Notes under the pieces: generated by a model
What the model saw: the letters and a program-made list of their open reading frames with translations, nothing else
Databases searched by the model: none
What the model was told of the DNA's origin: nothing
Program-made: the position numbers and the translations under genes
DNA from: Prosthecomicrobium sp.
Lineage (GTDB): Bacteria; Pseudomonadota; Alphaproteobacteria; Rhizobiales; Ancalomicrobiaceae
DNA length: 64,000 nt
Direction: 5' to 3'
Assembly (NCBI GenBank): GCA_048497495.1
Contig: JAFHCF010000159.1
Span: 20,173-84,172, forward strand
Shown here: positions 29,802-48,282 of the stretch, in pieces
Layout of the letters: every line of letters starts with the position of its first letter
Numbering within the stretch: the stretch's first letter is position 1

Positions 29802-29819
29802 GAATTGGTGGAGCTGAGG
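29802..29819. repeat. Island att core, distal copy (relic of the tRNA-Ala 3' end)
   Basis: GAATTGGTGGAGCTGAGG is identical to 48265-48282. Only the last 14 nt of the tRNA are duplicated here. Confidence 0.85.
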
Positions 29820-29937
29820 ACCACCAAACTATCGTCCGAAGCTGTTCCCATCAATCCAAAAATCCCCTTATTTTCTGCCGTTTTTCGTGGTCCCCCGTCT
29901 ATCCCCGTTCACAACCATCCGCTATTATCCACGAATT

Positions 29938-29960
29938 GATGATGGGTGGGATGATGGGTG
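29938..29960. repeat. 23-bp arm-type repeat (2 x GATGATGGGTG), integrase-proximal
   Basis: GATGATGGGTGGGATGATGGGTG is identical to 48191-48213. It ends 17 nt before the integrase ATG and abuts its RBS (AAGGGGAG). Confidence 0.7.
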
Positions 29961-29976
29961 AAGGGGAGACGGCGCG

Positions 29977-31206
29977 ATGCCGAAAGTGGTCGCCAAGCTC
30001 AACGATCGACAGGTGAAGGCCATCAAGGCCGATGGGCTCCACGCCTGCGGCGAAGGGCTCTATCTCCAAATCAAGGGCTCGGCGCGCGGCTGGATCTTCC
30101 GCTATCAGACGGCAGGCAAGCGCCGCGACATGGGCTTGGGCTCGGCTTCCGAAGTCGGCCTCAAGGAAGCCCGCGAAGCCATCGACGAGGCGAAGCGCGC
30201 CATTCGCGCCGGCCTTGATCCCGTCGACGCCCGCCGAGCCGAACGCCAGACGATCCCGACCTTCGGGAAATTCGCCGACGATCTCGTCGAGACCCTGGAA
30301 AAGGGCTTCCGCAACGACAAGCATCGGTATCAATGGAAGCAGACGCTCGGCGACGCCTATTGCGCGGCAATCCGGGGGAAGCTCGTCTCCGACATCACCA
30401 CCGCCGACGTGCTCGAAGTGCTCAAACCCGTCTGGCAAACGAAACAGGAAACCGCCTCGCGCCTTCGCGGTCGGATCGAGAAGGTATTGGACGCGGCCAA
30501 GGCGTGCGGCTTCCGTTCGGGCGAGAATCCGGCGGCATGGCGCGGACACCTCGCGAACCTTCTCCCCAAACGCCAGAAGCTCGCACGCGGGCATCAACCG
30601 GCCCTGCCCTACGATGGCGTTCCGGCACTTGTCGCCCGTCTCAGGGCACGCGATGCGGTCGCGGCGCGTGCGCTCGAATTCCTCATTCTCACGGCGACGC
30701 GGGCAGGCGAGGTCTTCGGCGCGACATGGGGCGAGTTCGACACCGCCGCCGAGGTGTGGACCATCCCCGCGAACCGTATGAAAGCGGGCAAGGAACACCG
30801 CGTCCCCCTGACGACGCGCGCCCTGGCGATCGTCGCTGAGATGGCCGCGCTTCGGACGAAGGGCAACGATACCGCCACCTTCGTGTTCCCTGGCGGGCGG
30901 GCCGGTCGCCCCCTCTCGAATATGGCGTTCAAGCAATTGCTCGTCCGCATGGGCGAGACGGGCTTCGTCCCGCACGGTTTCCGCTCGTCGTTCCGCGACT
31001 GGTGCGGCGAATGCACACCGTTCCCGCGCGAGGTCGCGGAAGCCGCTCTCGCGCACATGGTCGGCGACGAGGTGGAACGAGCCTACCGGCGCGGCGATGC
31101 GTTGGAGAAGCGCCGGAAGCTCATGGACGCATGGGCCGGTTTCATCGAACCCAAGGCGGCGAACGTCGTGACGCTCAAGCCGCTACGGAAAACTCCGGTC
31201 TCGTGA
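29977..31206 (+). CDS. int: Tyrosine recombinase, P4-type integrase (DUF4102 N-terminal domain)
   Basis: KLNDRQVKAIKADGLHACGEGLYLQIKGSARGWIFRYQ..GKRRDMGLG (Arm/DUF4102 type). Catalytic region ...LILTATRAGEV...HRVPL...PHGFRSSFRDW...ALAHMVGDEVERAYRRGD. Confidence 0.95.
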   Translation: MPKVVAKLNDRQVKAIKADGLHACGEGLYLQIKGSARGWIFRYQTAGKRRDMGLGSASEVGLKEAREAIDEAKRAIRAGLDPVDARRAERQTIPTFGKFADDLVETLEKGFRNDKHRYQWKQTLGDAYCAAIRGKLVSDITTADVLEVLKPVWQTKQETASRLRGRIEKVLDAAKACGFRSGENPAAWRGHLANLLPKRQKLARGHQPALPYDGVPALVARLRARDAVAARALEFLILTATRAGEVFGATWGEFDTAAEVWTIPANRMKAGKEHRVPLTTRALAIVAEMAALRTKGNDTATFVFPGGRAGRPLSNMAFKQLLVRMGETGFVPHGFRSSFRDWCGECTPFPREVAEAALAHMVGDEVERAYRRGDALEKRRKLMDAWAGFIEPKAANVVTLKPLRKTPVS

Positions 31207-31222
31207 CCGGGACTGCTGGTCG

Positions 31223-31250
31223 AAGGCGGTGGTTTCGAGGCCACCGCCTT
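31223..31250 (+). other. Stem-loop after the integrase gene
   Basis: AAGGCGGTGG-N8-CCACCGCCTT, 17 nt after the int stop. A paralogous hairpin follows the integrase stump at 35505-35528. Confidence 0.5.
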
Positions 31251-31331: not shown

Positions 31332-31658
31332 ATGGATCGCTGGACCATAGAGGTGACGATCGAAGCGCAGGCCGAATTGGCCGCTTGGCCGGTCGAGCTT
31401 CGCGCGTCACTGGCTCGGATCGTGGAGCGCGTCGAGCAAGTCGGCCTCGAACGGTTGGGCGAGCCCTTCGTGAAGCATCTCGAAGGCAAGCTCTGGGAAA
31501 TGCGACCCTCGGGCCGGCGGATCGAAGGGCGGGCGCTCTACGTGACCGCGACCGGTCGACGAGTTGTGATCCTGCTGGCGTTCGAGAAGAAGACGCAGAA
31601 GACGCCCCGCCGGTTCATCGAACGAGCCTTGGACAGAGCGAAGGACGTGAAGCCGTGA
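31332..31658 (+). CDS. Type II toxin, RelE/ParE superfamily (HigB / phage Gp49-like)
   Basis: ...VKHLEGKLWEMRPSGRRIEGRALYVTATGRRVVILLAFEKKTQKTPRRFIERALDRAK is the Gp49/HigB-type pattern. Followed by an overlapping HTH gene. Confidence 0.8.
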   Translation: MDRWTIEVTIEAQAELAAWPVELRASLARIVERVEQVGLERLGEPFVKHLEGKLWEMRPSGRRIEGRALYVTATGRRVVILLAFEKKTQKTPRRFIERALDRAKDVKP

Positions 31659-31945
31659 CCGAAATCGTTCCCTTCTCGAAGCTTTCCGACGAATGGAAGA
31701 AGGACGCCGCCTTCGTCGCCGAATACGAGCGCATCGGCCCCGACATGGATCTCGCCTTCGCGCTCTCCGAGGCGCGCCGGGAAGTCGGCCTCACACAGAC
31801 CGAGGTGGCACGGCGCATGGGAACCTCTCAGGCGGCCGTGGCGCGCATGGAAGGCGGCAAGGTCAAGCCGACATGGGAGACCGTGGAGCGCTACGCCCGC
31901 GCCCTCGGACGGCGGGCGGTGGTGGCGCTGGTGGCTGCGGAGTGA
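31655..31945 (+). CDS. XRE-family HTH antitoxin (HigA-like)
   Basis: The GTG at 31655 overlaps the toxin TGA. GLTQTEVARRMGTSQAAVARMEGGKVKPTWETVERYARALG is an XRE HTH. Confidence 0.75.
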   Translation: MTEIVPFSKLSDEWKKDAAFVAEYERIGPDMDLAFALSEARREVGLTQTEVARRMGTSQAAVARMEGGKVKPTWETVERYARALGRRAVVALVAAE

Positions 31946-31947
31946 TC

Positions 31948-32349
31948 ATGAGCAAGTTCGGCAAGGAAATGATCGAAAGCGCGGGGGAAGCCCTGGCCAT
32001 GGCGGGCGGCGGTTCCGAGCGTGCTCGCCTCGCACCCTTCGATGCCGCCGACTATCTCGACAGCGACGAGACCGCCGCCGAATACCTCGCCGTGAGCATC
32101 GAAGACGGCGATCCGGCAGTGGTTGCGAACGCGGTTCGGACCATCATGCGAGCACGCGGCGAGGCGATGACCGACGTTCTCGACCGGCTAATCGTCATCG
32201 CCGAGGATCGGCATGCTGCCGGGGAACGCGCTCGCCAAGTCGAGCGTGACCACTCGGGGTCAGCCGGCCATCAGGCGACGGCCTCGGCCTTTGGACCTTG
32301 CTCGGCAAGGATTCGCATGACATCCGCTGCCGGCTTGGGCCGACTGTAA
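31948..32349 (+). pseudogene. Antidote-like relic: N-terminal half of an addiction-module antidote without its HTH, running into the convergent GGDEF-EAL gene
   Basis: MSKFGKEMIESAGEALAMAGGGSERARLAPFDAADYLDSDETAAEYLAVSIEDGDPAVVANAVRTIMRARG parallels the antidote at 40629 (KPFDSAEHLRTDEDVAAYLEAAFEDGDPALVAHALGVIARTRG). It then diverges and lacks the GNP..HTH part. Its N-terminus is paralogous to ORF 40931. Confidence 0.4.
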
Positions 32350-34520
32350 AGGTAGCCTTGGGCTTCGGTGCAGCCTTCCGCCGTCACGCTCGCGAGCTGC
32401 TCGCCCGTCTCCACCCCTTCGGCGGTCGTCGTGATCCCCAGGCTGCTGCTCAACCCGACGACGGCGCGCACGATCGCCAAGCTGTCCTGCTTTCCAGGCA
32501 AATCGCGGATGAAAGACTGGTCGATTTTGATCTTGTCGAACGGGAAGCTGCGAAGATAGCCGAGCGACGAATATCCGGTGCCGAAATCGTCCATCGCAAT
32601 CTTGATGCCGAGATCGCGGAGTTGATGAAGAATGGCGAAAGCCCCCTCATTCTCCTGCACCAGCACCATTTCAGTGATCTCCAGCTCCAGCCGGGTCGCC
32701 GGCAGACCGGAGGTCGCCAGCGCATTGATGACCATCGGCACCAGATTCCGGCTCTTGAACTGGGCTGGGGAGAGGTTCACCGCGATCGTCACATGCGTCG
32801 GCCAGCGCGCGGCTTCGGTACAGGCCTGCCGCAACACCCATTCGCCTATCTGCACGATGAGACCGGTTTCTTCCGCGACCGGAATGAATTCGAGCGGCGG
32901 AATCATGCCGCGCTCTGGATGATGCCAGCGGATGAGCGCTTCGAAGCTGGTGATTTGACTGCTTTTGACGTCGATGATGGGTTGATAGTAAAGCTCGAAC
33001 TCGCCATTCACGATTGCCTTGCGAAGATCGAGTTCGAGGGCGCGGCGCGTCTGCATGCGGGCGTCCATTGCGATTTCGAAGAAGCGGTAGACGCCGCCGC
33101 CATCGGCTTTGGCGCGGTAGAGCGCCAAATCCGCGTTCTTCATGAGCACATCCGGCTCGCTACTGTCGTTCGGCGCGATCGCGATACCGACGCTTGCCCC
33201 GACCACCACCTGATGGCCATCCAGATCATACGGCGCTCCAACGACCTCGATGAGACGCATAGCAAGCGCCGTGGCATCCGCCGCCTGCTCCGACGGCACC
33301 TGCACGATGGCGAATTCGTCGCCGCCTAACCGGGCCACAATGTCTTCGCCTCGAACGCAACTGCGCATTCGCTCGGCAGCCGCCTTCAGCAAACGATCGC
33401 CGATCGGATGACCGAGCGTATCGTTGACGGCCTTGAAATGATCGAGATCGAGGCTGTGAACCGCGATGGTTTCGGAGCGACGCAAATGGCTGAGGGACGC
33501 CTCCACCCGCTCATAGAACGTCACGCGGTTCGGCAAGTCCGTGAGCGCATCGTAATGCGCCAGATGCCTGATCCGTTCCTCGGCCTTCAGGCGTTCGGTG
33601 ATATCCTCGAAGGTGGCGACGAAGCCGCCTTCCTGCATAGGCCGAAATGAAATCGCGATGTTGCGGCCGTCGGTCAGACGCTGGATGAACGAGCCTGCCT
33701 TGCGCTCGCGAAAAATCAGCTCGCGCAACGCAAGCGTATTCTCTGGTTCCGCATCCTTGCTCTTGCTGGAGGATTGCAACCGCGCCATTAACTGCTGGGT
33801 GGTCATGCCCGGTACGATACTTTCAACCGGCAGACCGTACATCTCCGTAAAGCGCCGATTGCAAATGACGAGCTTGCCATAAGCGTCGAACATGCAAAGG
33901 CCCTGCGACATGTTCATCAGCGCGGAGTCGAAACGCTCATTCTGCACATTCAATTGCGCGTTTCTGGACTCGATCGTCTCCTTGGCTGCCTCCAGCGCGC
34001 CCACGGTGCTATCCAGCACCTTGAGCGGAAACACGCGCACGGCGAAGTAGACGCCGACGCCGAAGATGGCGCTCAACAACGCGGCGAAACCCGTTTCCAA
34101 CAGCAGCGGATGAAGGCTGCTCGAGCCTTCGACCCGGCCGATCACAGAACCCGATACGACAATCGGATTGGCGCGGGTCATCACCGGCGCGGTCAAGGCC
34201 GGCCCGGCGGCGGCGATGACGGCGGTATCGTCACGGACACTGAGGGAGAAGTTTTTGCCATCGGCGGCGCCGAGTTCGATCAGTTCGGCGATGCGGGGCG
34301 CCTGATACTGCCAAAGCGACTGATGCATATAGATGTATTTGGCGACACGCGCGGCGGCCAGCTTGGATTTGTAATCCACCTCATGCGAGAGGTTCGCATA
34401 CGCCACATAAAAATAGCCACAGGGAATCGCTATAAAAATCGTCAGGGTTACGATCATGCCGATCGTGCCGACGAGCGTGCGCAGGCGAAAATTCCACATG
34501 GCTCGTCTCCTATTCGCCAA
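32271..34520 (-). CDS. Membrane sensor diguanylate cyclase/phosphodiesterase (TM - periplasmic region - PAS - GGDEF - EAL)
   Basis: GGDEF domain (LTDLPNR...RLGGDEFAIV) and EAL domain (FEALIRW...QPIID...EITE...KIAMDDFGTGYSSL...KIDQSF), with two TM segments at the N-terminus. Confidence 0.9.
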   Translation of the reverse strand: MANRRRAMWNFRLRTLVGTIGMIVTLTIFIAIPCGYFYVAYANLSHEVDYKSKLAAARVAKYIYMHQSLWQYQAPRIAELIELGAADGKNFSLSVRDDTAVIAAAGPALTAPVMTRANPIVVSGSVIGRVEGSSSLHPLLLETGFAALLSAIFGVGVYFAVRVFPLKVLDSTVGALEAAKETIESRNAQLNVQNERFDSALMNMSQGLCMFDAYGKLVICNRRFTEMYGLPVESIVPGMTTQQLMARLQSSSKSKDAEPENTLALRELIFRERKAGSFIQRLTDGRNIAISFRPMQEGGFVATFEDITERLKAEERIRHLAHYDALTDLPNRVTFYERVEASLSHLRRSETIAVHSLDLDHFKAVNDTLGHPIGDRLLKAAAERMRSCVRGEDIVARLGGDEFAIVQVPSEQAADATALAMRLIEVVGAPYDLDGHQVVVGASVGIAIAPNDSSEPDVLMKNADLALYRAKADGGGVYRFFEIAMDARMQTRRALELDLRKAIVNGEFELYYQPIIDVKSSQITSFEALIRWHHPERGMIPPLEFIPVAEETGLIVQIGEWVLRQACTEAARWPTHVTIAVNLSPAQFKSRNLVPMVINALATSGLPATRLELEITEMVLVQENEGAFAILHQLRDLGIKIAMDDFGTGYSSLGYLRSFPFDKIKIDQSFIRDLPGKQDSLAIVRAVVGLSSSLGITTTAEGVETGEQLASVTAEGCTEAQGYLYSRPKPAADVMRILAEQGPKAEAVA

Positions 34521-35328
34521 CAGGAAGGTTGCCGGTCGCCAGCAAAGCCTGGCGCCCAGCGTCCGAGCGCAGGAATGTCAGGAACTTCTCGGCGCCCGCG
34601 TTGCGACCGCGCGGAAACACCAGGTAGAAGCTCTTTTCGTGCCGGTAGGTCCCGTCGGCCAAAGTCTTGAGACTGGGCTCCACGCCGTCAATCGCAACGA
34701 AGCGCAGATTACATTTCTCGGCGACGATCTGCCCGAAGCCCGCCAGACCAATCGATCCGGGAAGGCGCTCGGCCAGATCGACATTGTCCTGATCGGTCGC
34801 CGCCACGGGAACCTCGGAGCGTTGCCGCGCCCGCGCGACCGCATCCTTCACGGCCGGGAGCGCCCGCTCGATGATCGCCGTGTCCGAATCGACCTTGGGC
34901 CGCAAAATGAGCTTGAGCGGCGTGCCATCCGCCCATTTCGGATTCTCCGCCGCGACAAGCGTGGCGATATCGTCCGTCTTAAGGCCATTGGGCTTTGGAT
35001 GCGACGTAATGAGGACCAGCGGCGTTCGCGCAAAGCGATGCGAGACGAGTAGCCCTTCCGCCAATTCGGGACTCAATGGCCGGCCCGCGACGACGACGTC
35101 GATCTTGCCGTCCACGATCGCGTGCATCGCGCCACTGGTGCCGAGGCCGACGATCACCTGCACTTCAATGCCGGTGGCGGCTTTGAACTGAGGAGCGATT
35201 TGCCGCATCGCCTCGATGATGCCGCCGGTTCCAGCCAGCCGCAGAGTCTCCGCGCCCGCGCCGTTTGCCGCCATCAGCAGAAAAGCGATCCCGACCGCAA
35301 TTGCCAATTTCGAAAATGATGCACGCAT
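34510..35328 (-). CDS. Periplasmic PstS-like (PBP_like_2) substrate-binding protein
   Basis: Signal peptide, then TLRLAGTGGIIEAMRQIAPQFKAATGIEVQVIVGLGTSGAMHAIVDGKIDV... Its stop overlaps the start of the GGDEF-EAL gene by 11 nt, suggesting a sensor/ligand-binding pair. Confidence 0.75.
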   Translation of the reverse strand: MRASFSKLAIAVGIAFLLMAANGAGAETLRLAGTGGIIEAMRQIAPQFKAATGIEVQVIVGLGTSGAMHAIVDGKIDVVVAGRPLSPELAEGLLVSHRFARTPLVLITSHPKPNGLKTDDIATLVAAENPKWADGTPLKLILRPKVDSDTAIIERALPAVKDAVARARQRSEVPVAATDQDNVDLAERLPGSIGLAGFGQIVAEKCNLRFVAIDGVEPSLKTLADGTYRHEKSFYLVFPRGRNAGAEKFLTFLRSDAGRQALLATGNLPVGE

Positions 35329-35437
35329 ATGACACTTCCCTCTATCGATGAGGGACAGTGCGCCAGCAGATGATGACGAATTACCTTAGTGTCGTGCGCG
35401 TACTGGCACGATGGTAAACAATATGACGACGCAGGCT

Positions 35438-35488
35438 GCGAACGTCGTCACGCTCAAGCTGAACCCGAAATCCCCGGTCGCGTGACCG
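35438..35488 (+). pseudogene. 3'-terminal stump of a second P4-type integrase gene
   Basis: GCGAACGTCGTCACGCTCAAGCTGAACCCGAAATCCCCGGTCGCGTGACCGG aligns with the last codons and stop of the intact int (31158-31210). ANVVTLKLNPKSPVA* compares with ANVVTLKPLRKTPVS*. It is followed by the paralogous hairpin at 35505-35528. Confidence 0.7.
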
Positions 35489-35586
35489 GATGACGAGCGA
35501 CCGGGGCGGTGGTCTCGCGACCACCGCCTGTTCCGTTCACAATCGGCCGCACTTGTCTTTCTGTCCATTAAATGAGACATTGCGTC

Positions 35587-35878
35587 ATGATCGAAGTCCG
35601 GCAAACGGAACGCTTCGGTGCCTGGATCTCCGGCCTTGCTGATTTCCGGGCGCGGGCTCGCATCCTGGTGCGGATCGACCGCTTCGCACTCGGGAACGCG
35701 GGAGATGCGAAGCCGGTCGGGGCGTGGCGTCTCGGAACTGCGGATCGACTACGGGCCGGGATACCGGGTCTATTTCGTTCGACGTGGCGAGGCGTTGATC
35801 ATCCTGCTTGCCGGCGGCGGCAAGCGCACGCAGGCGCGGGACATCGAAACCGCGCTCGCCATGGTGGCGGAACTCTGA
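35587..35878 (+). pseudogene. Addiction-module killer toxin (RelE/ParE superfamily), copy 1, frameshifted
   Basis: MIEVRQTERFGAWISGLADFRARARILVRIDRFALGNAGDAKPVG, then a +1 frameshift: the G-run 35719-35722 is GGGG versus GGG in copy 2. The remainder (RGVSELRIDYGPGYRVYFVRRGEALIILLAGGGKRTQARDIE) is in another frame. Confidence 0.8.
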
Positions 35879-35888
35879 GGGACGAGAC

Positions 35889-35924
35889 ATGGCACCGCTG
35901 GAAACCAAGCTCGGCCGTTGCTAA
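35889..35924 (+). pseudogene. Truncated antidote gene, copy 1 (only 7 native codons remain)
   Basis: MAPLETK is identical to the start of the intact antidote at 40629. Homology breaks after 35910 and a stop follows (MAPLETKLGRC*). Confidence 0.75.
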
Positions 35925-35965: not shown

Positions 35966-35983
35966 TATTGCCATATGGCAATA
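35966..35983. promoter_or_regulatory. Perfect 18-bp palindrome, candidate operator of the Xre-RES operon
   Basis: TATTGCCATATGGCAATA ends 12 nt before the preferred antitoxin ATG (35996) and overlaps its AGAGGA RBS region. Confidence 0.5.
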
Positions 35984-35995
35984 GAGGATTTCACC

Positions 35996-36409
35996 ATGGC
36001 CGAACTCGTTCCCATATCGACCGACCCCGGACCCTTCGTCCCTGCCCCGATCACCGACCCCGAAGCGGCGGCGATGTTCCGCGCCTGCGTGAACCTCTTC
36101 CGCTTGTGGGACGTCACCGACGCCGAGGCCGGCGTCTTGCTCGATCTGCCGCCGCGTACCTTCGCGCGATGGAAGACGGGCGCGCTCGGGCGGATCGATC
36201 GCGACCAGAAGGCGCGGCTTTCCAACCTCATGGGCATTCACAAGGCGTTGCGGATCGTCTTTCGCGAGCCCGAGCGGGCCTATGCCTGGATCAAGGCGCC
36301 CAACAGCACCTTCTCGGCGAGATCAGCCCTCGACGTGATGCTCGGCGGTGAACTCACCGACCTGATGCGGGTTCGGCGCTATCTCGACGCCGAGCGGGGC
36401 GGGTGGTGA
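35996..36409 (+). CDS. Xre/MbcA/ParS-type antitoxin (DUF2384 toxin-binding domain)
   Basis: ...LFRLWDVTDAEAGVLLDLPPRTFARWKTG......ARLSNLMGIHKALRIVF.EPERAYAWIKAPNSTFSARSALDVMLGG...LMRVRRYLD is the DUF2384 pattern, and a RES gene follows. Start preferred at 35996 (RBS) over 35975. Confidence 0.8.
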   Translation: MAELVPISTDPGPFVPAPITDPEAAAMFRACVNLFRLWDVTDAEAGVLLDLPPRTFARWKTGALGRIDRDQKARLSNLMGIHKALRIVFREPERAYAWIKAPNSTFSARSALDVMLGGELTDLMRVRRYLDAERGGW

Positions 36410-37113
36410 TCGACATAGCGTCCATTCCGGTCGTCGACATCGAATGGCGTCGCGCCGTGCGGATCATCCGCAGCGCCCATCCACCGATCGACCTCTTCGA
36501 GGACATCGCCGACCCCGCCGATTGGCCGCTTCTCATCTCGGCGGAACAGAAGACCAATCCACGCCTGATGGAGACCTTCGGCAATCTCGACCTCGTGCCG
36601 CAGGATCGTCGCGTCAGCGGGCCGGGGGCATCCTACCTCATGGCCCCCTTCACGCATGTGAGCACCGACCGCCCGAGCCGCTTCAGCGACGGCAGCTTCG
36701 GCGTGCTCTACGTCGGGCGGACATTCGACACCGCCCTCTTCGAGACGATACACCACCACGCCCGCTTCATGGCGGCGACCGCCGAGCGACCCGGATGGAC
36801 CTCGCAGTTCCGCGAAATCGTCCTGGACGTGACCGCCCGCCTCCACGATATCGGCGACGTCGCCGGAACCACCGTCCTCGCCCCCGACGACTACACCGCA
36901 GGACAGAGCCTCGGCGCAGCCCTTCGCCGGTCGGGATCGGAAGGCGTGCGCTACCCGAGCGTTCGCCAACCCGGTGGCGATTGCGCTGGGCTGTTCCATC
37001 CGCCGGCAGACGCACGCCCTACCCAAGGGCGGCATCTCGATTATCATTGGGATGGAGGGAGGGTAGACCTATTCCGAGATCACAGCAACGGTACGACGTA
37101 TCGGATCAATTGA
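36403..37113 (+). CDS. RES-domain toxin (MbcT/ParT-type, NAD+/nucleotide-metabolism-targeting family)
   Basis: R in SRFSDGSFGVLYVGRTFDTALFET, with E following, and S in GVRYPSVRQPGGDCAGLFHP. The GTG start overlaps the antitoxin stop. Confidence 0.8.
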   Translation: MVIDIASIPVVDIEWRRAVRIIRSAHPPIDLFEDIADPADWPLLISAEQKTNPRLMETFGNLDLVPQDRRVSGPGASYLMAPFTHVSTDRPSRFSDGSFGVLYVGRTFDTALFETIHHHARFMAATAERPGWTSQFREIVLDVTARLHDIGDVAGTTVLAPDDYTAGQSLGAALRRSGSEGVRYPSVRQPGGDCAGLFHPPADARPTQGRHLDYHWDGGRVDLFRDHSNGTTYRIN

Positions 37114-38151: not shown

Positions 38152-38158
38152 CTTGGCC

Positions 38159-39094: not shown

Positions 39095-39100
39095 GGTGTT

Positions 39101-40294: not shown

Positions 40295-40618
40295 TTGTCA
40301 TTTTGTCCATTAAATGGGACACTTCTTCATGGTCGAAGTCCGGTAGCGGAACGCTTCGAAGCTTGGCTCTCCGGCCCTGCCGATCTTCGGGCACGGGCTC
40401 GCATCTTGGTGCGGATCGACCGCCTCGCACTCGGGAACGCGGGAGATGCGAAGCCGGTCGGGCGTGGTGTCTCGGAACTGCGGATCGACTACGGGCCGGG
40501 ATACCGGGTCTATTTCGTTCGACGTGGCGAGGCGTTGATCATCCTGCTTGCCGGCGGCGACAAGCGCACGCAGGCGCGGGACATCGAAACCGCGCTCGCC
40601 ATGGTGGCGGAACTCTGA
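40295..40618 (+). CDS. Addiction-module killer toxin, copy 2, native N-terminus destroyed (possibly a pseudogene)
   Basis: ERFEAWLSGPADLRARARILVRIDRLALGNAGDAKPVGRGVSELRIDYGPGYRVYFVRRGEALIILLAGGDKRTQARDIE is intact. However, the native ATG (40329) reads MVEVR-stop and is out of frame by a 1-nt deletion. Only an upstream TTG (40295) opens the frame. Confidence 0.55.
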   Translation: MSFCPLNGTLLHGRSPVAERFEAWLSGPADLRARARILVRIDRLALGNAGDAKPVGRGVSELRIDYGPGYRVYFVRRGEALIILLAGGDKRTQARDIETALAMVAEL

Positions 40619-40628
40619 GGGACGAGAC

Positions 40629-40934
40629 ATGGCACCGCTGGAAACCAAGCCCTTCGATTCCGCCGAGCATCTTCGGACCGACGAAGACGTTGCCGCCTAT
40701 CTCGAAGCCGCGTTCGAAGACGGCGATCCGGCGCTCGTCGCTCATGCACTCGGCGTGATCGCCCGCACGCGCGGCATGACCAAGCTCGCCCGAGAAACCG
40801 GCATCGGCCGGCAGAGCCTCTATGTCGCGCTCTCCGAAGGCGGCAACCCGACGCTGGCGAATTTCATGGCGATCACCAAGGCGCTCGGGCTTGCCGTCCG
40901 GGTGGAGCCCATCCAGCACGAAGCGGCGGAATGA
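40629..40934 (+). CDS. Addiction-module antidote protein (HTH)
   Basis: MAPLETKPFDSAEHLRTDEDVAAYLEAAFEDGDPALVAHALGVIARTRGMTKLARETGIGRQSLYVALSEGGNPTLANFMAITKALGL is the canonical antidote pattern. Confidence 0.85.
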   Translation: MAPLETKPFDSAEHLRTDEDVAAYLEAAFEDGDPALVAHALGVIARTRGMTKLARETGIGRQSLYVALSEGGNPTLANFMAITKALGLAVRVEPIQHEAAE

Positions 40935-41776
40935 GCATGACCAAGCTCGGAACGGGCCTGATCGAGAGCGCGAGGGACGCCCTGACCATGGCGGGCGATG
41001 GTTCCAATCCTGCCCGCCTCACCCCCTTCGATGCCGCCGGCAACATCGACAGTGGTGAGACCGCTGCCGAGGGTGTACCGCCATTGATGGACAACAACGA
41101 ACGTCTGAATATCTTTGAACAATCGCATCAAGGTTTCCGCGATGTGGTTTATCAATTGGCCGACATAGCCGGCATTGCCCATTCTAACGTGAGCGAAATT
41201 GGCTACATTATCAGCTTACTCAATAGCGCGTTGATTGGTTCAATAGTCATTGAGCCCGGCGACGACGGGATAATGAGCGGATGGCAGAAGCCGTACACTG
41301 CAGTGAAATACAATAAAAAGCTGGATATTATGGAGAACACTGTCAGATTTATGAAAGTGACGCAGAAATTGCTTTCCGATGATGCAATGCACTATGCCAT
41401 TTCAAACGAGATTCGCCGCAAGCGATACCCGGTAAAAACAAAAGATGAACTTGGGGAGCGCTACTTTGAGATCTCAAATGATCTAGACCGCTTACGTCGC
41501 GATATGGAGCCAATCGCGTCAGCACTTAAATCCATAGCTAAAACGGCAAGAAAGAAGACACACAAGGGGCGAGAACCCGAGTGGAACAAGTATCGAATTG
41601 TCTGGGAAGCTGCGGAATTTTTCGATGACGCGAGCTGCCACAAGCCCTCGCCTGCCAAGACGTCGCCATTCACGGCATTCGTAGAGCAAATTTTCACGTT
41701 CGCATTCAAGACGAAGAAGCACCCCGATGTGTCGAGGATCATCCGGGCGGCCTTGAGGGAGCGCCCGTTACGTTAA
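40931..41776 (+). CDS. Chimeric ORF: 52 GC-rich codons paralogous to ORF 31948, fused in frame to a low-GC orphan (229 aa from the internal ATG at 41087)
   Basis: MSMTKLGTGLIESARDALTMAGDGSNPARLTPFDAA parallels MSKFGKEMIESAGEALAMAGGGSERARLAPFDAA. From ~41087 the DNA turns AT-rich and I recognise no family. ATGA overlap with the antidote stop. Confidence 0.5.
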   Translation: MSMTKLGTGLIESARDALTMAGDGSNPARLTPFDAAGNIDSGETAAEGVPPLMDNNERLNIFEQSHQGFRDVVYQLADIAGIAHSNVSEIGYIISLLNSALIGSIVIEPGDDGIMSGWQKPYTAVKYNKKLDIMENTVRFMKVTQKLLSDDAMHYAISNEIRRKRYPVKTKDELGERYFEISNDLDRLRRDMEPIASALKSIAKTARKKTHKGREPEWNKYRIVWEAAEFFDDASCHKPSPAKTSPFTAFVEQIFTFAFKTKKHPDVSRIIRAALRERPLR

Positions 41777-42049: not shown

Positions 42050-42302
42050 TCGGTTCTCCCGCGAGAATTCGCAACGCCCCTGTGCTCCGATCGCGTGGCG
42101 CCGCCGCTCGCTCGACCGCCTCACCAAGGCGATCGACGACTTCAGCCTGAACACGTTGGACGCGATCCGGGCGAGCGGCTTCGACGAAGCCGTTGCCCTG
42201 CGTGCCGTCACCGAAGGGCGAAAGGCGATCTCCGCCGTTCTGGTGAGCACGGTCGAACCCCAGATGATCGAGGATGCGACGGAGGCCGGCAATGCAAGCT
42301 GA
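42042..42302 (+). CDS. Small hypothetical protein, translationally coupled between the AlpA-like and DUF3631 genes
   Basis: 8-nt overlap upstream and 11-nt overlap downstream. No recognisable domain. Confidence 0.45.
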   Translation: MRDRFSRENSQRPCAPIAWRRRSLDRLTKAIDDFSLNTLDAIRASGFDEAVALRAVTEGRKAISAVLVSTVEPQMIEDATEAGNAS

Positions 42303-43653
42303 TCGCGCCACCGTTCACCCCCTGCCCGTGCCATCCCCGGCGCCCAAGAAGCGCAAAGCCGAGCCGAAGGCCGCCGGGTCGATCCTCTTCCCCGAGGTCG
42401 AGCCATGGCCGGGGCCGCTCGACGTCGGGACGCTCCTGAACGACATACGGGCGACGATCCGTCGCCACATCGTCTGTCCGACCGAGGCCACGATCGCCGC
42501 CGCCCTGTGGATCGCCTTCACTTGGGTGATCGACTTCGTTCAAGTCGCCCCACTCGCCGTCATCACCGCGCCGGAAAAACGGTGCGGCAAGTCACAGTTT
42601 CTCGATCTCATCGGCCGCATGGTCCGAAAGCCGCTCGTCGCCTCGGGGATCACATCCGCCGCGACGTTCCGGGTGATCGAAGCCCACGCCCCGACCCTGC
42701 TGATCGACGAAGCCGACACCTTCATGAAGGACAATGAAGGCCTTCGCGGGGTGATCAACAGTGGCCATACGCGCCAGAGCGCCTTCGTGATCCGAACCGT
42801 CGGCGACACCCACGAACCGCGTCAATTCTCGACTTGGGGAGCCAAGGCGATTTCGGGGATCGGCAACTTGCCGGCGACGATCATGGATCGGGCGATCATC
42901 CTCGAACTTCGGCGGAAGCTGCCGAGCGAGACCGTCGAACGGCTGCGTCACGCCGACCCCGGCCACTTCGACATGTTGGCGCGGAAGCTCGCCCGCTTCG
43001 CCGAATTGCATGGCGAAGAGATCCGCCGGTCGCGGCCTCGTCTCCCCGACGCCCTGAACGATCGCGCCCAAGACAATTGGGACCCCCTTCTCGCCATCGC
43101 CGACGTTGCCGGCGGGGCATGGCCCGACCTCGCCCGCCGCGTCGCTCTGAAGCTCTCGGCGGTCGACGAGGCGGTGGTCTCGACCGGCGCCGAACTCCTC
43201 TCCGACATTCGCGCCGCCTTCGACCAAGGCGGGCGGGATCGTCTCACCTCCGCCGACCTCATCGCCCGACTCTGCGACGACGAAGAGGCGGCTTGGGCGA
43301 CCTACGATCGCGGCCGTCCTCTCTCGCCGCGCCAACTCGGGAAGAGGCTCGGCGAATACCGCATCACCTCGCGCAAGATCCGCTTCGGCGTGACCACCGC
43401 CCAAGGCTTCGAACGGTCGCAATTCGAAGATGTCTGGTTGCGTTATCTCGACGTCTGCCCAACGCCCCCCGACTCTTCCGGAACGCCGGAACAATCAAAT
43501 GAAATCAATGAATTGATGTTCCGGATGCCGGATCATGTTCCGGAGCACTCGAGCCCTTCCGGAACAGGTAAGCCATTGAAATCAGACGATTGTTCCGGTG
43601 TTCCGGATGGAAGCCCCCTTGCGGGCGAAACCGAATGGGAGGAAGAGCTTTGA
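42292..43653 (+). CDS. DUF3631 domain protein (P4-like island replication/primase-associated module)
   Basis: LFPEVEPWPGPLDVGTLLNDI...APLAVITAPEKRCGKSQFLDLIG...PTLLIDEADTFMKDNEGLRGVINSGHTR...FSTWGAKAISGIGNLPATIMDRAIILELRRK is the DUF3631 pattern. Confidence 0.8.
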   Translation: MQADRATVHPLPVPSPAPKKRKAEPKAAGSILFPEVEPWPGPLDVGTLLNDIRATIRRHIVCPTEATIAAALWIAFTWVIDFVQVAPLAVITAPEKRCGKSQFLDLIGRMVRKPLVASGITSAATFRVIEAHAPTLLIDEADTFMKDNEGLRGVINSGHTRQSAFVIRTVGDTHEPRQFSTWGAKAISGIGNLPATIMDRAIILELRRKLPSETVERLRHADPGHFDMLARKLARFAELHGEEIRRSRPRLPDALNDRAQDNWDPLLAIADVAGGAWPDLARRVALKLSAVDEAVVSTGAELLSDIRAAFDQGGRDRLTSADLIARLCDDEEAAWATYDRGRPLSPRQLGKRLGEYRITSRKIRFGVTTAQGFERSQFEDVWLRYLDVCPTPPDSSGTPEQSNEINELMFRMPDHVPEHSSPSGTGKPLKSDDCSGVPDGSPLAGETEWEEEL

Positions 43654-44132
43654 ACGCCGCCCGTCTCTTGGCCGAAGCCTCCGCCCTGGGGGCGCATTTC
43701 CGCCTCGTCGACGGCCGGGTGAAGGTCGCCGCGCCGCGCCCCTTGCCGGTCGATCTCATGGGCGAACTGCGAGCGCGGAAAGACGAGATCGCCCGCACTC
43801 TTTCGGCTTCATCGACCCCCTATACTACCGCCTTCGACGACCTGCGGCGCGCTTGCCCGGCCGGTGTTGCCGAAACCCGCTGGCGTCTCGCCGTCGCCGA
43901 TGCCGGCCAGTTTCTCGACCGATGGGGGACGACGGCCGCCGCTTTCGAATGGCCGGCACCCGACCTCTTCGACCGGACCGAACACGGCGCCGATGGGCTC
44001 CTGTGGGAACTCGGCGGCCGGGCGGTGGTCGCCCTGACCGCAGGCGGCGCCATGCTCGGCGAGAACGCCACCACCTCGCGGGCTTGGTACGCCCGCCCGC
44101 TCGAAAGGCGCACCGATGCCGCGACCGCGTGA
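43635..44132 (+). CDS. Hypothetical island protein
   Basis: Same strand and overlapping neighbours, with GC-rich codon usage. The start is uncertain (43635 ATG or TTG ~43650). Confidence 0.4.
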   Translation: MGGRALNAARLLAEASALGAHFRLVDGRVKVAAPRPLPVDLMGELRARKDEIARTLSASSTPYTTAFDDLRRACPAGVAETRWRLAVADAGQFLDRWGTTAAAFEWPAPDLFDRTEHGADGLLWELGGRAVVALTAGGAMLGENATTSRAWYARPLERRTDAATA

Positions 44133-44718
44133 ACGGGTCCGTCTCGAAGACGGCTTGAAACTCGATCTGAACCGCCTCCTACGTCAGAACCTCGTGAAGT
44201 CGGGCGCGGCGTGGGGATCGACGATCTTCTGGCACGAACGGATGTCCGGTCGCGAGATCGCCTCCGGTCGAGTTTCCGCCGACATGACCGGCGATCGGCG
44301 CGGATGGTTGCGGCTGCAACTCGGCACTCTCGATCAGTCGATCGATCTCGAAGCCCTCCCCCGGCCCTACGGCGGTCGGCAATGGTACTTCCTTTGCCCT
44401 TGGACTCGTCGGCGGGCGTCGGTGCTGTGGATGCCGCCCGGCGCGCACAGCTTCGCGAGCCGCTTCACCTGGGGCAGGCAAGTCGCCTACGGCTCCCAAT
44501 TCCAGAGCCCCTTCGACCGTGCCCTGAGCGCAGCGCAGGACATTCGATATCGGTTAGGCGGTTCGGACTACGTGTCGCTGGACGAAATGCCGCCGCCTAA
44601 GCCGAAGGGGATGCGGTGGCGCACCTATGCCGCCATCATGAGCCGCTGCGAGGCCCACGAAATCACCGTCGACCGGCATCTCGCCGGCTTCATCGAACGG
44701 CTCGAGGGGCACCGATGA
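44116..44718 (+). CDS. Hypothetical island protein
   Basis: 200 aa (..RQWYFLCPWTRRRASVLWMPPGA..). No domain recognised. Overlaps the preceding ORF by 17 nt. Confidence 0.5.
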   Translation: MPRPRERVRLEDGLKLDLNRLLRQNLVKSGAAWGSTIFWHERMSGREIASGRVSADMTGDRRGWLRLQLGTLDQSIDLEALPRPYGGRQWYFLCPWTRRRASVLWMPPGAHSFASRFTWGRQVAYGSQFQSPFDRALSAAQDIRYRLGGSDYVSLDEMPPPKPKGMRWRTYAAIMSRCEAHEITVDRHLAGFIERLEGHR

Positions 44719-44766: not shown

Positions 44767-47682
44767 TCATCGCCCCGCCGTCGCCCGTTCCCGATTGAGG
44801 TCGAGAAGCCGCGCCAAGGCGTCTTCCTCGCCGATGTCCTCCGGCCATCCGTAGGCAGCCGCGACCGCCGCGTCGAGATCGCGGTGGGCATTGTCGAGCC
44901 ACGTCGGCCGCTCGTTGTAGAGGTTGGTCAAGGTCCGCTTCTTGAGGATCGCCGCCGCCGCGTCGTCGACGGGTAGGATGCGATCGGGATAGCCCGGCAC
45001 CACCTCGGGCACCCGCTCGACCAGATCGGCCGGATTGAGCCAAGCCTCACGCAACTCGTTCAACCGCTTCGCCGCCGCCGCGATGCGGATGGCGCGCGGA
45101 TCGTCGGCATAGTCGACGGCGGGGATGTTCGGGGTGAGGCCTTCCGGGAAGGGGAAAGTCTCTAAACACGTCTCGGTGTTATAGGTCGGATCATTCCCGA
45201 CCCCGTGCCATGAGCATGTCGCCAAGCTCCAGGCATTGTGAATTTGGCTTTGAAGAACGCCAAAGAAAAAGTCATCGTCCCGCGCGAACGCATAAAGTCG
45301 AGAGTCGGGCACGACTGCCGCGCTCAACCAGACGAACAGCCGGTGTTTCGCTACCCGGGTTGTCACCAGAAAGCGCGCCTGTGGGTCCTTGGCGAGCGTT
45401 TGTGGAAGGGCACGAAGCGCGCCCCACATCTTTGGACGCGGCTCTACATGCCGCCACCAATAGCGACGATATTGCTCGCGCCGGTTTTCTTCGCGCAAAG
45501 GTTTCACATGATTCGCGACATAGGCGAACGGGTCTTGAAAAAGGGCAGCTTGGGCTTCGTCGATTTGCCAGCCAAAATCCACGATCCACTTATCCGCTGA
45601 ACGTCGCGTCACGTCCATTCCGTTCATCCACGGCCTGAGAACATCCGAGTTCGGCCGCCCATTCGGATTCAGCGGCAGCGCGAGCCATTCCCGCGCAAGT
45701 TCGCCTGAAATGTCGAACGGGCCGCCCTTTGTGTCCCCCATGAAGGCAACGTCCGAATTCTCGCGAAGACATGTAGCTGTGGTGAAGTCGCTTGCTCCGC
45801 CCGTCAGGTCAGAATTCACGCGAGGGGCGGGCAAGCCGTCAAGATGGACGCCGGCCGAAGGCGGAGTGGCCGCAAAGCATATCAGCGAGACCCGCACTGC
45901 CGCACCATTGAGAACCCAAGGCTCATCGGGCCACGCATCATAGATGATGCCCTCAGCCACGATGGGCTCAAGCGTCTTCCGGTTTGCACCGCCGCGCATG
46001 GAATTGGTCGCGACGAAGCCCGCACGCGCCGTGCTGCCGCCCGCGATGGCCTCCCACCCCTTGACGAACCAATAGGCGACGAAGTCCGCCTCGGGCGGGA
46101 CGCGGCCTGAGAAGGCGGTGAACAGCTTATCGACGTAGTCCGACCCGAAACCATTCCGCAGCAGCTTGCCACCAAGGAAAGGTGGGTTCCCCACGATCGC
46201 GTCGGCCTCGGGCCACACAGCCTCGGTGCCGTCCTCGTTCAGCAGCGCATCGCGACACTCGATATTGTCGAGCGGCTTCAAGATCGGGTTGCGCGAGACG
46301 TCGAAGCCGTTGCGCAGCATCCATTGGATTTCGCCGACCCACACCGACACCCGCGCCAGTTCGGCGGCATAGGGGTTGATCTCGATCCCCTTGACCGACG
46401 ACGGGCCGATCGAGGGAAACTCGCGCTGGAAGCCGAGCGCTTCCGCTTCGATGTTGACCCGGTGTTCGAGATCCTTCAGCGCCAACAGCGCCAGATAGAG
46501 GAAGTTGCCCGAGCCGCAGGCCGGGTCGAGAACCTTGAACGCCCTGAGGCGATCGAGGAAGCCGATCAACAGCGCCTTCGCCTCGCCATGCGCCTTGGTC
46601 TTGGCGGATGGCGACTTCGCCGCCTTCTCCTTGTCGAGCCCGGCGACGATCGCCGCCTTGGTCGTCTCCCATTCGGCGAGCCATGGCCGATTGATCACCG
46701 GATCGATGATCAACATGATCTTGTCGCGGTCGGTGTAGTGCGCGCCGAGCTGCGAGCGCTTGTCGGGGTCGAGCCCGCGCTCGAACAGCGTGCCGAGGAT
46801 CGACGGGTCGATCTCCTCCCACTCCGCATTCGCCGCCGCGAGTGCGATGGCGATGTCGTCCTTGTCGAGCGGAAGCGCGGTGTCGTCGTCGAACAGCCCG
46901 CCGTTGAACCAATCGATCGTCTCCCACGCCGCCTCGCCGCCGGCCTTCATCGCCTTGAACAGTTCCGACGCCCGCTTGGCGAACTGCTCCGGCTGTTTCG
47001 CCGTGCTCATCAGCATCTTGGTGAAGAGCTTGTTGGGTAGCAACTTCACGTCTTCGGCGAACATGCAGAAGATCAGCCGATTGACGAAATGCGCGACCGT
47101 TTCCGCCTGGTGCCCGCGCGCGCGGAGACGTTGCGCCAGAGCCGCGAATTGCGCCGCCACTTCCTCGGTGAGCTTCTGACGGGTCTTCTGCGGACGCAGC
47201 TTCTCGGGGTCGGAGAGAACCCATTTGAGTTTCTGGCGCGTCTCCGCGTCCTTGAGGTCGTCGAGCGCGAACTCGTGAACCTGCGAAACCGTGTTGGTCC
47301 AATTGGTGTGGATGCGGAACCGATCGAGATCGCAGACGACGAGAAGCGGCGGATTCTCCAAGGCCAGCGCATATTGCTGGAGTTGCGCGAAAGCCTTGTC
47401 GAGGCTCTTGGTCTTGCCCTTGTACTCCCATCCGAAGTGACCGCGCTTCCAGACGTCGGCCCATCCCTCGCCGCCGGTCGTCTTCGAGGCGCCCTTCTCG
47501 AAGGCGTACCACTCGCCCTTCGGATCGGCCTCGGTGGGGGAGGGCTCGCCGAGCATCGCGCACAGGTCGTTGAAGTGCGATTGCGCCGCCGACCGCTCCT
47601 TCAACTCGACGGCCTTCCACTTGGCGATGAAGGCTTCAGGCGTCACGGCGCGCACCCCGGTTCGATTCAGTGCACCGAGCAT
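44767..47682 (-). CDS. MmeI-like Type IIL/IIG restriction-modification enzyme candidate (N-terminal D..ExK nuclease motif + gamma-class N6-adenine methyltransferase)
   Basis: N-terminus FIAKWKAVELKERSAAQSHFNDLCAMLG...GWADVWKRGHFGWEYKGKTKSLDKAFAQLQQY (D-x..-E-x-K). MTase motif I VLDPACGSGNFLY and motif IV GNPPFLGG. ~970 aa single polypeptide. Start set at MLGALN (47682). Confidence 0.8.
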   Translation of the reverse strand: MLGALNRTGVRAVTPEAFIAKWKAVELKERSAAQSHFNDLCAMLGEPSPTEADPKGEWYAFEKGASKTTGGEGWADVWKRGHFGWEYKGKTKSLDKAFAQLQQYALALENPPLLVVCDLDRFRIHTNWTNTVSQVHEFALDDLKDAETRQKLKWVLSDPEKLRPQKTRQKLTEEVAAQFAALAQRLRARGHQAETVAHFVNRLIFCMFAEDVKLLPNKLFTKMLMSTAKQPEQFAKRASELFKAMKAGGEAAWETIDWFNGGLFDDDTALPLDKDDIAIALAAANAEWEEIDPSILGTLFERGLDPDKRSQLGAHYTDRDKIMLIIDPVINRPWLAEWETTKAAIVAGLDKEKAAKSPSAKTKAHGEAKALLIGFLDRLRAFKVLDPACGSGNFLYLALLALKDLEHRVNIEAEALGFQREFPSIGPSSVKGIEINPYAAELARVSVWVGEIQWMLRNGFDVSRNPILKPLDNIECRDALLNEDGTEAVWPEADAIVGNPPFLGGKLLRNGFGSDYVDKLFTAFSGRVPPEADFVAYWFVKGWEAIAGGSTARAGFVATNSMRGGANRKTLEPIVAEGIIYDAWPDEPWVLNGAAVRVSLICFAATPPSAGVHLDGLPAPRVNSDLTGGASDFTTATCLRENSDVAFMGDTKGGPFDISGELAREWLALPLNPNGRPNSDVLRPWMNGMDVTRRSADKWIVDFGWQIDEAQAALFQDPFAYVANHVKPLREENRREQYRRYWWRHVEPRPKMWGALRALPQTLAKDPQARFLVTTRVAKHRLFVWLSAAVVPDSRLYAFARDDDFFFGVLQSQIHNAWSLATCSWHGVGNDPTYNTETCLETFPFPEGLTPNIPAVDYADDPRAIRIAAAAKRLNELREAWLNPADLVERVPEVVPGYPDRILPVDDAAAAILKKRTLTNLYNERPTWLDNAHRDLDAAVAAAYGWPEDIGEEDALARLLDLNRERATAGR

Positions 47683-48190
47683 AGCCGAGTGGGTTCGAAC
47701 GAAAAGAGCGAACCGCCTGTCGTTGTGGATTGGGCAGGCATCAATCAAAAGGAGGTCGCCCGTCCGATCCGCGCGCGACCGGGAAGATCCCCGCGAGCAT
47801 GTGCGCGCCGAAATCGACACCGCGAAATCAAGAGAACCGGATCGGCGCTGGCGAAGCGATGGGCGGCAACACGACCGCATGGCGCGTGATGGTTTCCACG
47901 GCGGTTACCAGCGAGGTTCCCACCATGGCGCGGCCGTCACGCTCGAAGTGACTGGTGACGATCCGATGGTTCGCGGTACGCAGCCGGTACGCACCCCTGG
48001 CCGCAAGTTTCAGTTTCAGACCGGTTTCAGCGCCCAACGCACGCGCGAAGTGGTCCGGACGCCCGCTGCGGGTCCCTTCACCGATTTAGCGCCAGTCTCT
48101 TCGCGAACCACGCGCGAGGGCATCGGCAACGAATTCCGCCTTTGCGACCGTCCGCCTTCGTCCGTCCCGAGTTGCCCCGGTCCGTGTCGC

Positions 48191-48213
48191 GATGATGGGT
48201 GGGATGATGGGTG
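48191..48213. repeat. 23-bp arm-type repeat, tRNA-proximal copy
   Basis: GATGATGGGTGGGATGATGGGTG is identical to 29938-29960, in the same orientation, 51 nt inside the att core. Confidence 0.7.
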
Positions 48214-48227
48214 GCCGAAGTTCAGGC

Positions 48228-48253
48228 AACAAAAAACGGCGGAAAACCGCCGT
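48228..48253 (-). terminator. Intrinsic terminator for tRNA-Ala, encoded by island DNA
   Basis: The minus strand reads ACGGCGG-TTTT-CCGCCGT followed by TTTTTGTT, starting 15 nt downstream of the tRNA 3' end. Confidence 0.7.
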
Positions 48254-48264
48254 ATATGCGTGGT

Positions 48265-48282
48265 GAATTGGTGGAGCTGAGG
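48265..48282. repeat. Island att core, tRNA-proximal copy
   Basis: GAATTGGTGGAGCTGAGG. Positions 48269-48282 are the 3' 14 nt of tRNA-Ala. Confidence 0.85.

Follow-up and report, generated by a model that had tools for sequence, protein, structure and literature searches.

A tRNA-Ala(CGC) island of Prosthecomicrobium with tandem 10-bp repeats that are probable arm-type sites of its own integrase

In the 64,000-nucleotide stretch of Prosthecomicrobium sp. DNA analyzed here (the window, from GenBank contig JAFHCF010000159.1) a mobile island of 18.5 kb is integrated at the 3' end of a tRNA-Ala(CGC) gene, where it occupies bases 29802-48282 and is cleanly bounded. Positions given without a contig or locus name are those of the window. 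A tyrosine integrase gene (int) lies at the left end of the island and the tRNA gene at the right end, with toxin-antitoxin (TA), RES and restriction-modification genes, a candidate excisionase and other cargo in between (Table 1). Inside each end is one copy of a 23-bp tandem repeat. The spacing of these repeats and their conservation in related elements indicate that they are very probably accessory (arm-type) binding sites of the island's own integrase.

The core of the element, the 18-mer GAATTGGTGGAGCTGAGG, has exactly two copies in the window, one at each border, where the chance expectation is 0. No third copy was found in the window when up to two mismatches were allowed, and the rest of the draft assembly (4.6 Mb in 276 contigs) has no further copy. 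Because the tRNA gene spans 48269-48344, 14 nt of the right copy are the tRNA 3' terminus with its CCA and the other 4 nt lie past the end of the gene. A sequence-only reading of this DNA had reported the duplication and had put the integrase gene at the end distal to the tRNA. Both statements held: the two copies are exact, the right copy is the tRNA 3' end and the int ATG lies at 29977. The tRNA-Ala gene was the sole Rfam match over 29-49 kb. The G+C content of the island is 61.3% versus 69-71% in the flanks. The half-sites TTGGTGG and CCACCAA form an inverted repeat at the core and are candidate core-type integrase sites. They are kept in all seven close elements (see below), and the spacer between them varies with the target tRNA.

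Exact copies of the 23-mer GATGATGGGTGGGATGATGGGTG are present at 29938-29960 and 48191-48213, both on the + strand, and each is composed of two 10-bp sites, GATGATGGGT, whose starts are 12 bp apart, so that each arm has one pair (P1-P2 on the tRNA side and P'1-P'2 on the int side). Matching between the left and right arms is restricted to these 23 bp and therefore the arms are not part of a longer duplication. The 23/23 identity exceeds functional need, because the 11th base is free in relatives. As both 23-mers are on the + strand, in a circular attP they would lie to either side of the core in direct orientation. The sequence-only reading had one repeat inside each end in this orientation, and the coordinates and strands were confirmed. 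Likewise, the left repeat was said to abut the int ribosome binding site, and a Shine-Dalgarno-like run (GGGGAG) does directly follow it. The repeat is also an exact tandem 23-mer as described, but it is not one unit: the functional unit appears to be the 10-mer, set in 12-bp pairs. Note that 10 bp inserted between P'2 and the int ATG (29961-29976) are peculiar to this island and create the clear GGGGAG; in six siblings the int ATG is only ~7 nt past the repeat. Matches to GATGATGGGT at up to three mismatches occur in the arms at the genomic background of 6.8 per kb, and none of these is kept in position. We therefore claim no sites beyond the 2 + 2.

The integrase has the three domains expected of an arm-binding recombinase. 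Residues 8-89 match PF13356 (DUF4102/Arm-DNA-bind_3, E=1.3e-18), the arm-binding domain, with PF22022 (Phage_int_M, core-binding) and PF00589 (Phage_integrase, catalytic) making up the remainder, and residues R242, K269, H333, R336, H360 and Y370 do not vary among 13 aligned members of the family. The PDB matches to the N-terminus, 3ju0 and 3jtz, are N-terminal arm-binding domains of CP4-like integrases and the NCBIfam match is PRK09692-like. DUF4102 serves as the arm-binding domain in integrases of the IntSXT subgroup (PMC8138268), and because the PDB matches are CP4-like arm-binding domains, the integrase falls in the IntSXT/P4-like subgroup by that definition.

Related loci were collected, 16 from species genomes and five from metagenomes. 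The close group consists of seven elements: the window island, a sibling at a tRNA-Met gene of the same genome (ISLB), L001 (at tRNA-Ala GGC of genome G002, a Siculibacillus metagenome-assembled genome), L002 (at tRNA-Ala CGC of genome G016), L003, and the metagenome loci L041 and L044. Among the 22 repeat units of this group, positions 1-9 read GATGATGGG in 21 and position 10 is T in 20, whereas position 11 is random (G7, T6, A4, C5). Mean pairwise identity of the seven elements is 98% in the repeat columns versus 66% in the 108 columns between core and repeat. Spacing is equally strict. Measured from the first base of the core, the P' units begin at 137 and 149 bp in the window and in L001-L003 and at 135 and 147 bp in ISLB, the core of which is 2 bp shorter; by alignment the P' repeats of L041 and L044 are in the same register. 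On the other side, the starts of the P units precede the core end by 91 and 79 bp in each of the four elements with a known P arm. A 72-aa protein that is the candidate excisionase of the island, scoring above the cut-off of NCBIfam TIGR01764 ('excise') and matching PHROG 66, an excisionase family, has homologues of 78-90% identity in L001, L002, L003 and the tRNA-Met sibling.

Outside the close group the repeats persist with altered sequences. A tandem direct repeat of ~12-bp period is found close upstream of the int start in all but one of the members having a readable upstream region, the exception being L010, which has only dispersed copies of its own motif. When the arm-binding domain is 81-92% identical to that of the window integrase, GATGATGGGT is kept. 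In L004-L008 the arm domains are only 41-49% identical, whereas the core-binding and catalytic domains are 63-76% identical, and the tandems at the same place are TGGTGGGAG, AGTGGGGCCG and GCTGGGGTG instead of GATGATGGGT. In all of the motif-divergent members the arm domain is at or below 49% identity and the core-binding and catalytic domains are 48-76% identical. L009, an element at tRNA-Tyr with a 51% identical integrase, has pairs of its own GGTTTAGGGAAC type on both arms. In Caulobacter phage DMCA (integrase 51.5% identical) GACTTAGG tandems flank a stretch of ~165 bp immediately upstream of int, a region that we take to be an unintegrated attP. In the DMCA sequence (PQ480021.1; L046:1231-1450) GACTTAGG occurs twice upstream and three times just before int, a layout matching that of the island family, and the stretch between the repeats contains TGGCGCAAGGGGCG, which resembles a tRNA 3' end. 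The pattern GATGATGGGNNGGATGATGGG gave eight matches in 22 family genomes, all at island arms, and a reversed-pattern control gave 0. These data bear out the earlier arm-type interpretation through conserved spacing and sequence, covariation of motif and arm domain, and occurrence at island arms only, and they exclude a generic genome-wide repeat, which the sequence-only reading had named as grounds for abandoning it.

The sequence between the arm sites and the core is also organized. The island itself supplies the intrinsic terminator hairpin and T-run between the P sites and the core, and the P arms of L001, L002 and the tRNA-Met sibling retain them. This terminator occupies the place of the native terminator at empty sites, and therefore the element replaces the tRNA 3' end together with its terminator. 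In the P' arm the blocks GTCTATC and GCTATTAT are invariant or nearly so in six to seven elements, the remainder of the arm being ~66% identical. Just distal to the P sites, a block (TCCGCCTTCGTCCG, 48150-48190) is conserved in the window, the tRNA-Met sibling and L002 and partly in L001; this block may be a site for the excisionase or for a host bending protein.

Comparison with related genomes lacking the island, which the sequence-only reading had called for, gave two genera in which tRNA-Ala(CGC) is empty and a third in which a different sibling island is present. G002 and G009, of two other genera, have an identical tRNA-Ala(CGC) (76/76), a syntenic right flank and a native terminator hairpin downstream, and no integrase lies within 6 kb of that tRNA in either genome. 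In G016 the 7.4-kb L002 island is at the same site, and the right flank is syntenic with ~79-83% nucleotide identity. Only the tRNA side is usable for the empty-site comparison, because the GntR gene and tRNA-Ala are on different contigs in other genera. The backbone modules of the island are 89-93% identical to those of L001, whereas the chromosomal flanks of these genera are ~80% identical, indicating recent horizontal spread of the family.

The account that we favor, and consider likely, is of a DUF4102-integrase tRNA island in which the integrase binds the arm sites. The circular attP would be ~250 bp in length and would run P1-P2, 51 bp containing the terminator, core, 118 bp, P'1-P'2, 16 nt and int. 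The TTGGTGG, 9-bp spacer and CCACCAA of the core would match the acceptor stem and CCA end of the tRNA, and strand exchange inside the shared 18 bp would give attL, with int just inside, and attR, with the tRNA rebuilt. The four GATGATGGGT 10-mers would be bound by the N-terminal arm-binding domain, each integrase molecule bridging an arm site and a core site as do lambda Int and the IntS integrase of ICEMlSymR7A. Excision would require both integrase and the 72-aa excisionase-type protein, and the intact integrase, the excisionase candidate and the att sites make present-day excision plausible. With the P' pair ending 16 nt before the int start codon, autorepression of int by the integrase through P'1 and P'2 seems probable.

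Several observations weigh against this account or parts of it. Integrase binding of the 10-mers and present-day excision are inferred only, and covariation of motif and arm domain is by itself no proof that integrase is the binder, because the excisionase-like protein covaries too. The assembly has no attP or attB junction contig (there is no third or fourth core copy), and a metagenome scan for the core plus the P' side gave five loci, all of which were attL forms of siblings. As a strict empty-site test the orthologous-site comparison is at the family level, with other genera, and exact-protein look-ups with the integrase, the GntR protein and the right-flank open reading frame (ORF) found no other assembly of the strain. 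The attL flank (29740-29801) lacks the native terminator hairpin CCGCGGAAATCCGCGG plus T-run, which is present at the empty sites of G002 and G009 and at the attL of L001-L003, L041 and L045, and GntR and tRNA-Ala are not neighbors in related genera. Either this part of the chromosome has undergone rearrangement or its native terminator has been lost. Lastly, a sigma-70 scan upstream of int gave no canonical promoter: the conserved GCTATTAT box resembles a -10 element, and no TTGACA-like hexamer lies 16-18 bp upstream of it. Owing to that negative scan, autoregulation of int is argued from position and precedent only.

Three other explanations were considered. The most serious is that the island is a fixed, decaying and immobile remnant, with ends that are intact through recent integration or by chance. 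The interior is indeed a mosaic that includes the stump of an integrase gene, a toxin with a frameshift and an antidote that is cut short, own transfer or packaging genes are missing, neither the assembly nor the metagenome contigs contain an attP or attB junction, and int is broken in the relatives L006, L013 and L014. However, the integrase of the window is full length with every catalytic residue present, the excisionase candidate is intact, the cores (18/18) and arms (23/23) are identical, and a backbone 89-93% identical to that of another genus between flanks of ~80% identity argues for recent horizontal movement of the family. We consider a remnant unlikely, while granting it more weight than either of the two remaining readings. 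Note that the related int genes of L006, L013 and L014 are truncated or frameshifted, and these loci are therefore decayed siblings.

The 10-mers might instead bind the excisionase (a recombination directionality factor, RDF) or another island regulator, and serve as int operator and bending site with integrase contacting only the core. Tandem direct repeats in att arms are common targets of RDFs, and in this island the P' pair is immediately upstream of int. Moreover, the 72-aa excisionase-like protein is conserved in the same elements that share GATGATGGGT, and the excisionase RdfS of ICEMlSymR7A binds next to an arm site (PMC11963761). Set against this, the repeats are on both arms in the same orientation with fixed spacing, as is typical of integrase arm sites, whereas RDF sites are normally confined to one arm, and the motif changes where arm-domain identity drops (to 49% or less) although the rest of the integrase remains 63-76% identical in L004-L008. 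In addition, L004 and L006 have the same tandem layout with no detectable homologue of the excisionase in the ~0.6 kb and ~10 kb downstream of int that are covered, and the motif is similar to TGKTGGTATC, an IntS arm consensus that has been validated genetically (PMC11963761). Binding by an RDF rather than by integrase therefore seems improbable to us. More remote still is the notion that the repeats are iterons of a replication origin used after excision by the DUF3631 module, a view to which the short tandem direct repeats and the possible replication protein lend some appeal. Each site comprises just two units, the sites are divided between the two att arms at a distance from the DUF3631 gene, and the motif covaries with the integrase arm domain. 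We reject the iteron reading since siblings having a different replication-type protein (AAA_25 in place of DUF3631) keep the same repeats.

The tRNA-Met sibling ISLB was found by tBLASTn as an integrase paralogue, 80% identical, on contig C204 of the same genome. Its integrase gene has AATGATGGGCTGGATGATGGGTG directly upstream, and the other end of the element is the start of the window's contig, where GATGATGGGCAGGATGATGGGTT is ~55 bp from tRNA-Met(cat). Both of its parts, C204:9866-19368 and C159:1-1255, lie outside the window, the tRNA-Met end being covered by L035. A contig break falls within ISLB, which leaves its cargo incomplete and its size a minimum (at least 10.7 kb). ISLB has the core TTTGGTGGCGGGGGGC, GATGATGGG arm pairs and a homologous excisionase. 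The reconstructed attPs of the window and ISLB align over ~350 bp, and share the tandem 10-mers on both arms, the hairpin and T-run between P sites and core, and the TTGGTGG/CCACCAA half-sites. The 8-9 bp between the half-sites are AGCTGAGGA in the window versus CGGGGGGCT in ISLB, each matching its own tRNA, and this attP spacer is the conspicuous core difference among siblings at different tRNAs.

More generally, the siblings ISLB, L001, L002, L041 and L044 have integrases 80-93% identical to that of the window, and share with the island the GATGATGGGT arm code with its spacing, both core half-sites, the excisionase and the int-adjacent TA modules. They differ in that the core spacer of some matches another tRNA and in cargo and size, at 7.4-7.8 kb with an AAA_25 protein, in contrast to the 18.5 kb with DUF3631, restriction-modification and RES systems of the present island. 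Tentatively, and short of an even chance in our judgment, the family may constitute a natural retargeting series in which one arm code and the same CCA-end half-sites are combined with different tRNAs (Ala-CGC, Ala-GGC and Met-CAT). In L002 the attL (1529-1546) is GAATTGGTGGAGCCAAGG and the attR (8969-8986) is GAATTGGTGGAGCTGAGG, a CA/TG difference within the 18-bp core. Either strand exchange took place to the left of that difference or integrase tolerates heterology, and the difference bears on the location of the overlap region.

Table 1 Features of the island at tRNA-Ala(CGC), in window positions.
Feature	Position	Strand	Basis or remark
attL core	29802-29819		18-bp duplicate of tRNA-Ala 3' end (14 nt) plus 4 nt
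Candidate core-type integrase sites	29805-29827		Inverted repeat TTGGTGG (29805-11)/CCACCAA (29821-27), 9-bp spacer AGCTGAGGA
P' arm of attP	29820-29976	+	Between core and int; blocks GTCTATC (29897-29903) and GCTATTAT (29921-29928)
P'1 and P'2 putative arm-type sites (GATGATGGGT)	29938-47, 29950-59	+	Pair ends 16 nt before int ATG
Tyrosine integrase, 409 aa	29977-31206	+	Pfam PF13356, PF22022, PF00589
TA module 1	31332-31945	+	Gp49/HigB-like toxin (31332-31658) and HTH_3/HTH_31 antitoxin (~31646-31945)
Truncated HI1420-type antidote-like ORF	31948-32349	+	PF21716 over half the model only
PAS-GGDEF-EAL protein and periplasmic-binding-protein-like gene	32271-35328	minus	32271-34520 and 34510-35328; non-conflict cargo
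Second integrase gene stump (3' end) and downstream segment	35433-35528	+	blastn to int 3' ends of L001, L002 and ISLB
Frameshifted copy of L001-type Gp49-like toxin	35572-35875	+	tblastn, two frames, break near 35720
Xre/ParS-type antitoxin and RES toxin	35975-37113	+	35975-36409 and 36403-37113
RES-domain, sce7725-family and sce7726-family proteins	37129-39988	minus	Low-GC block; sce families by NCBIfam
TA module 3	40295-40934	+	Gp49-like toxin copy (40295-40618) and HI1420-type antitoxin (40629-40931, by homology)
Candidate excisionase (RDF), 72 aa	41831-42049	+	Pfam HTH_17, TIGR01764, PHROG 66
DUF3631 protein and two uncharacterised ORFs	42274-44718	+	DUF3631 at 42274-43653; possible replication module
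MmeI-like restriction-modification enzyme	44767-47880	minus	Single-polypeptide Type IIG/IIL
P1 and P2 putative arm-type sites (GATGATGGGT)	48191-200, 48203-212	+	Pair ends 51 bp before core
Intrinsic terminator hairpin and T-run	48236-48253	minus	Island-supplied, 15 nt downstream of tRNA CCA
attR core	48265-48282		Exact match of attL core
tRNA-Ala(cgc), intact, integration target	48269-48344	minus	ARAGORN and Rfam

The cargo had been described as almost entirely conflict systems, which was an overstatement: about half of its length is TA, RES and restriction-modification genes. The remainder is composed of a cyclic di-GMP sensor pair (the PAS-GGDEF-EAL protein and the binding-protein-like gene), the excisionase and DUF3631 module, uncharacterised genes, among them a 281-aa ORF with no assigned function, and pseudogenes. 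The island is a mosaic to which related elements have contributed by accretion or recombination. TA module 1 has 90% nucleotide identity to the int-adjacent module of L002 and L003, and TA module 3, with an intact antitoxin, has 91% nucleotide identity to L001. The frameshifted toxin copy (35572-35875) is a direct repeat with 40279-40650. These toxin duplicates (35433-35910 and 40279-40983) are ~370-bp direct repeats, 4.74 kb apart, that bracket the Xre-RES and RES/sce7725/sce7726 blocks. The RES/sce7725/sce7726 block has the lowest G+C content of the island (50-55%), and PADLOC gave only a weak 'cll' match to it. Over 90% of its length, the DUF3631 protein shares 46.6% identity with a hypothetical protein of Pseudomonas phage Phipami28. 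A gene of phage vB_Pae_U1 that is annotated as DNA primase matches it over a short stretch, and the segment is possibly a replication module. In L001 and L002 an AAA_25 ATPase is downstream of the excisionase homologue, in place of DUF3631.

Among the ~20 island ORFs scanned there was no Pfam, NCBIfam or PHROG match for a relaxase, coupling protein or type IV secretion gene, and no capsid or packaging gene was seen among them. Because no conjugation or capsid genes were found, any transfer of the island would depend on a helper. Membership in the integrative and conjugative elements (ICEs) was rejected since the relaxase, coupling protein and type IV secretion genes are missing. A P4-like satellite was also rejected, as PHROGs and Pfam found only the integrase and excisionase, a search of limited sensitivity given that three ORFs are uncharacterised.

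The closest characterised system is IntS and the attP of the Mesorhizobium symbiosis island ICEMlSymR7A. That element is an ICE, in contrast to the 18.5-kb island without conjugation genes, and its intS adjoins phe-tRNA, whereas int is here at the tRNA-distal end. The two hosts appear to be of the same alphaproteobacterial order, and both elements have a tyrosine integrase that targets a tRNA 3' end, with int directly beside attP, and several 10-bp arm sites on both sides of the core that are TGnTGG-rich (TGKTGGTATC versus GATGATGGGT). The IntS attP is 283 bp in length with five arm sites of consensus TGKTGGTATC, all of which are required for efficient integration, and IntS represses its own gene (PMC11963761). 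The present island has 2 + 2 sites in strict 12-bp tandem pairs rather than five. Integrase autorepression and a small winged helix-turn-helix excisionase, RdfS, are properties of ICEMlSymR7A (PMC11963761); in the island autorepression is proposed and the excisionase is a candidate, and binding and excision are predicted from sequence.

Islands of the phage P4/CP4-57 type have the same integrase architecture (PRK09692-like, with the CP4-like N-terminal domains in the PDB), tRNA or tmRNA 3'-end integration, a short duplicated core, arm repeats and a small helix-turn-helix excisionase/regulator (AlpA/Vis). P4 differs in that Pfam and PHROGs gave no homologue of its capsid-size, psu/delta or alpha primase-helicase genes in the island, and the cargo of the island, TA, RES and restriction-modification plus the cyclic di-GMP sensor pair, is unlike that of P4/CP4-57. 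Identity of the integrase to phage integrases is at most ~51%. The attP of lambda Int (P1, P2, P'1-P'3) is similar in the concept of a bivalent integrase, direct tandem P' sites and an inverted-repeat core around the overlap. Lambda Int is of another arm-binding fold subgroup, that of the island integrase being DUF4102 with an extra strand and helix (PMC8138268), and the island has symmetric 2 + 2 tandem pairs and a tRNA target. By sequence-level criteria the element is a DUF4102-integrase tRNA island with arm-type sites, a kind already known, and nothing unexpected.

For annotation, the exact borders of a defence-rich composite island are fixed, and this assigns its TA, RES, sce7725/7726 and MmeI-like genes to the mobile cargo. 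For recombinase biology, the family offers a compact ~250-bp attP with just four arm sites and a sibling pair in one genome. If the siblings are a retargeting series, target choice would be set mainly by overlap-region homology, and two siblings ~49 kb apart with an identical arm code and near-identical excisionases could cross-regulate or co-excise. The graded changes in arm domain and arm motif of the distant members could then allow the DNA-recognition code of DUF4102 to be read. With at least six different arm motifs paired with diverged arm-binding domains, the family is a natural data set for DNA reading by DUF4102 and for shifts of tRNA target. Its value lies in annotation and in this natural series of arm codes and retargeting, rather than in surprise.

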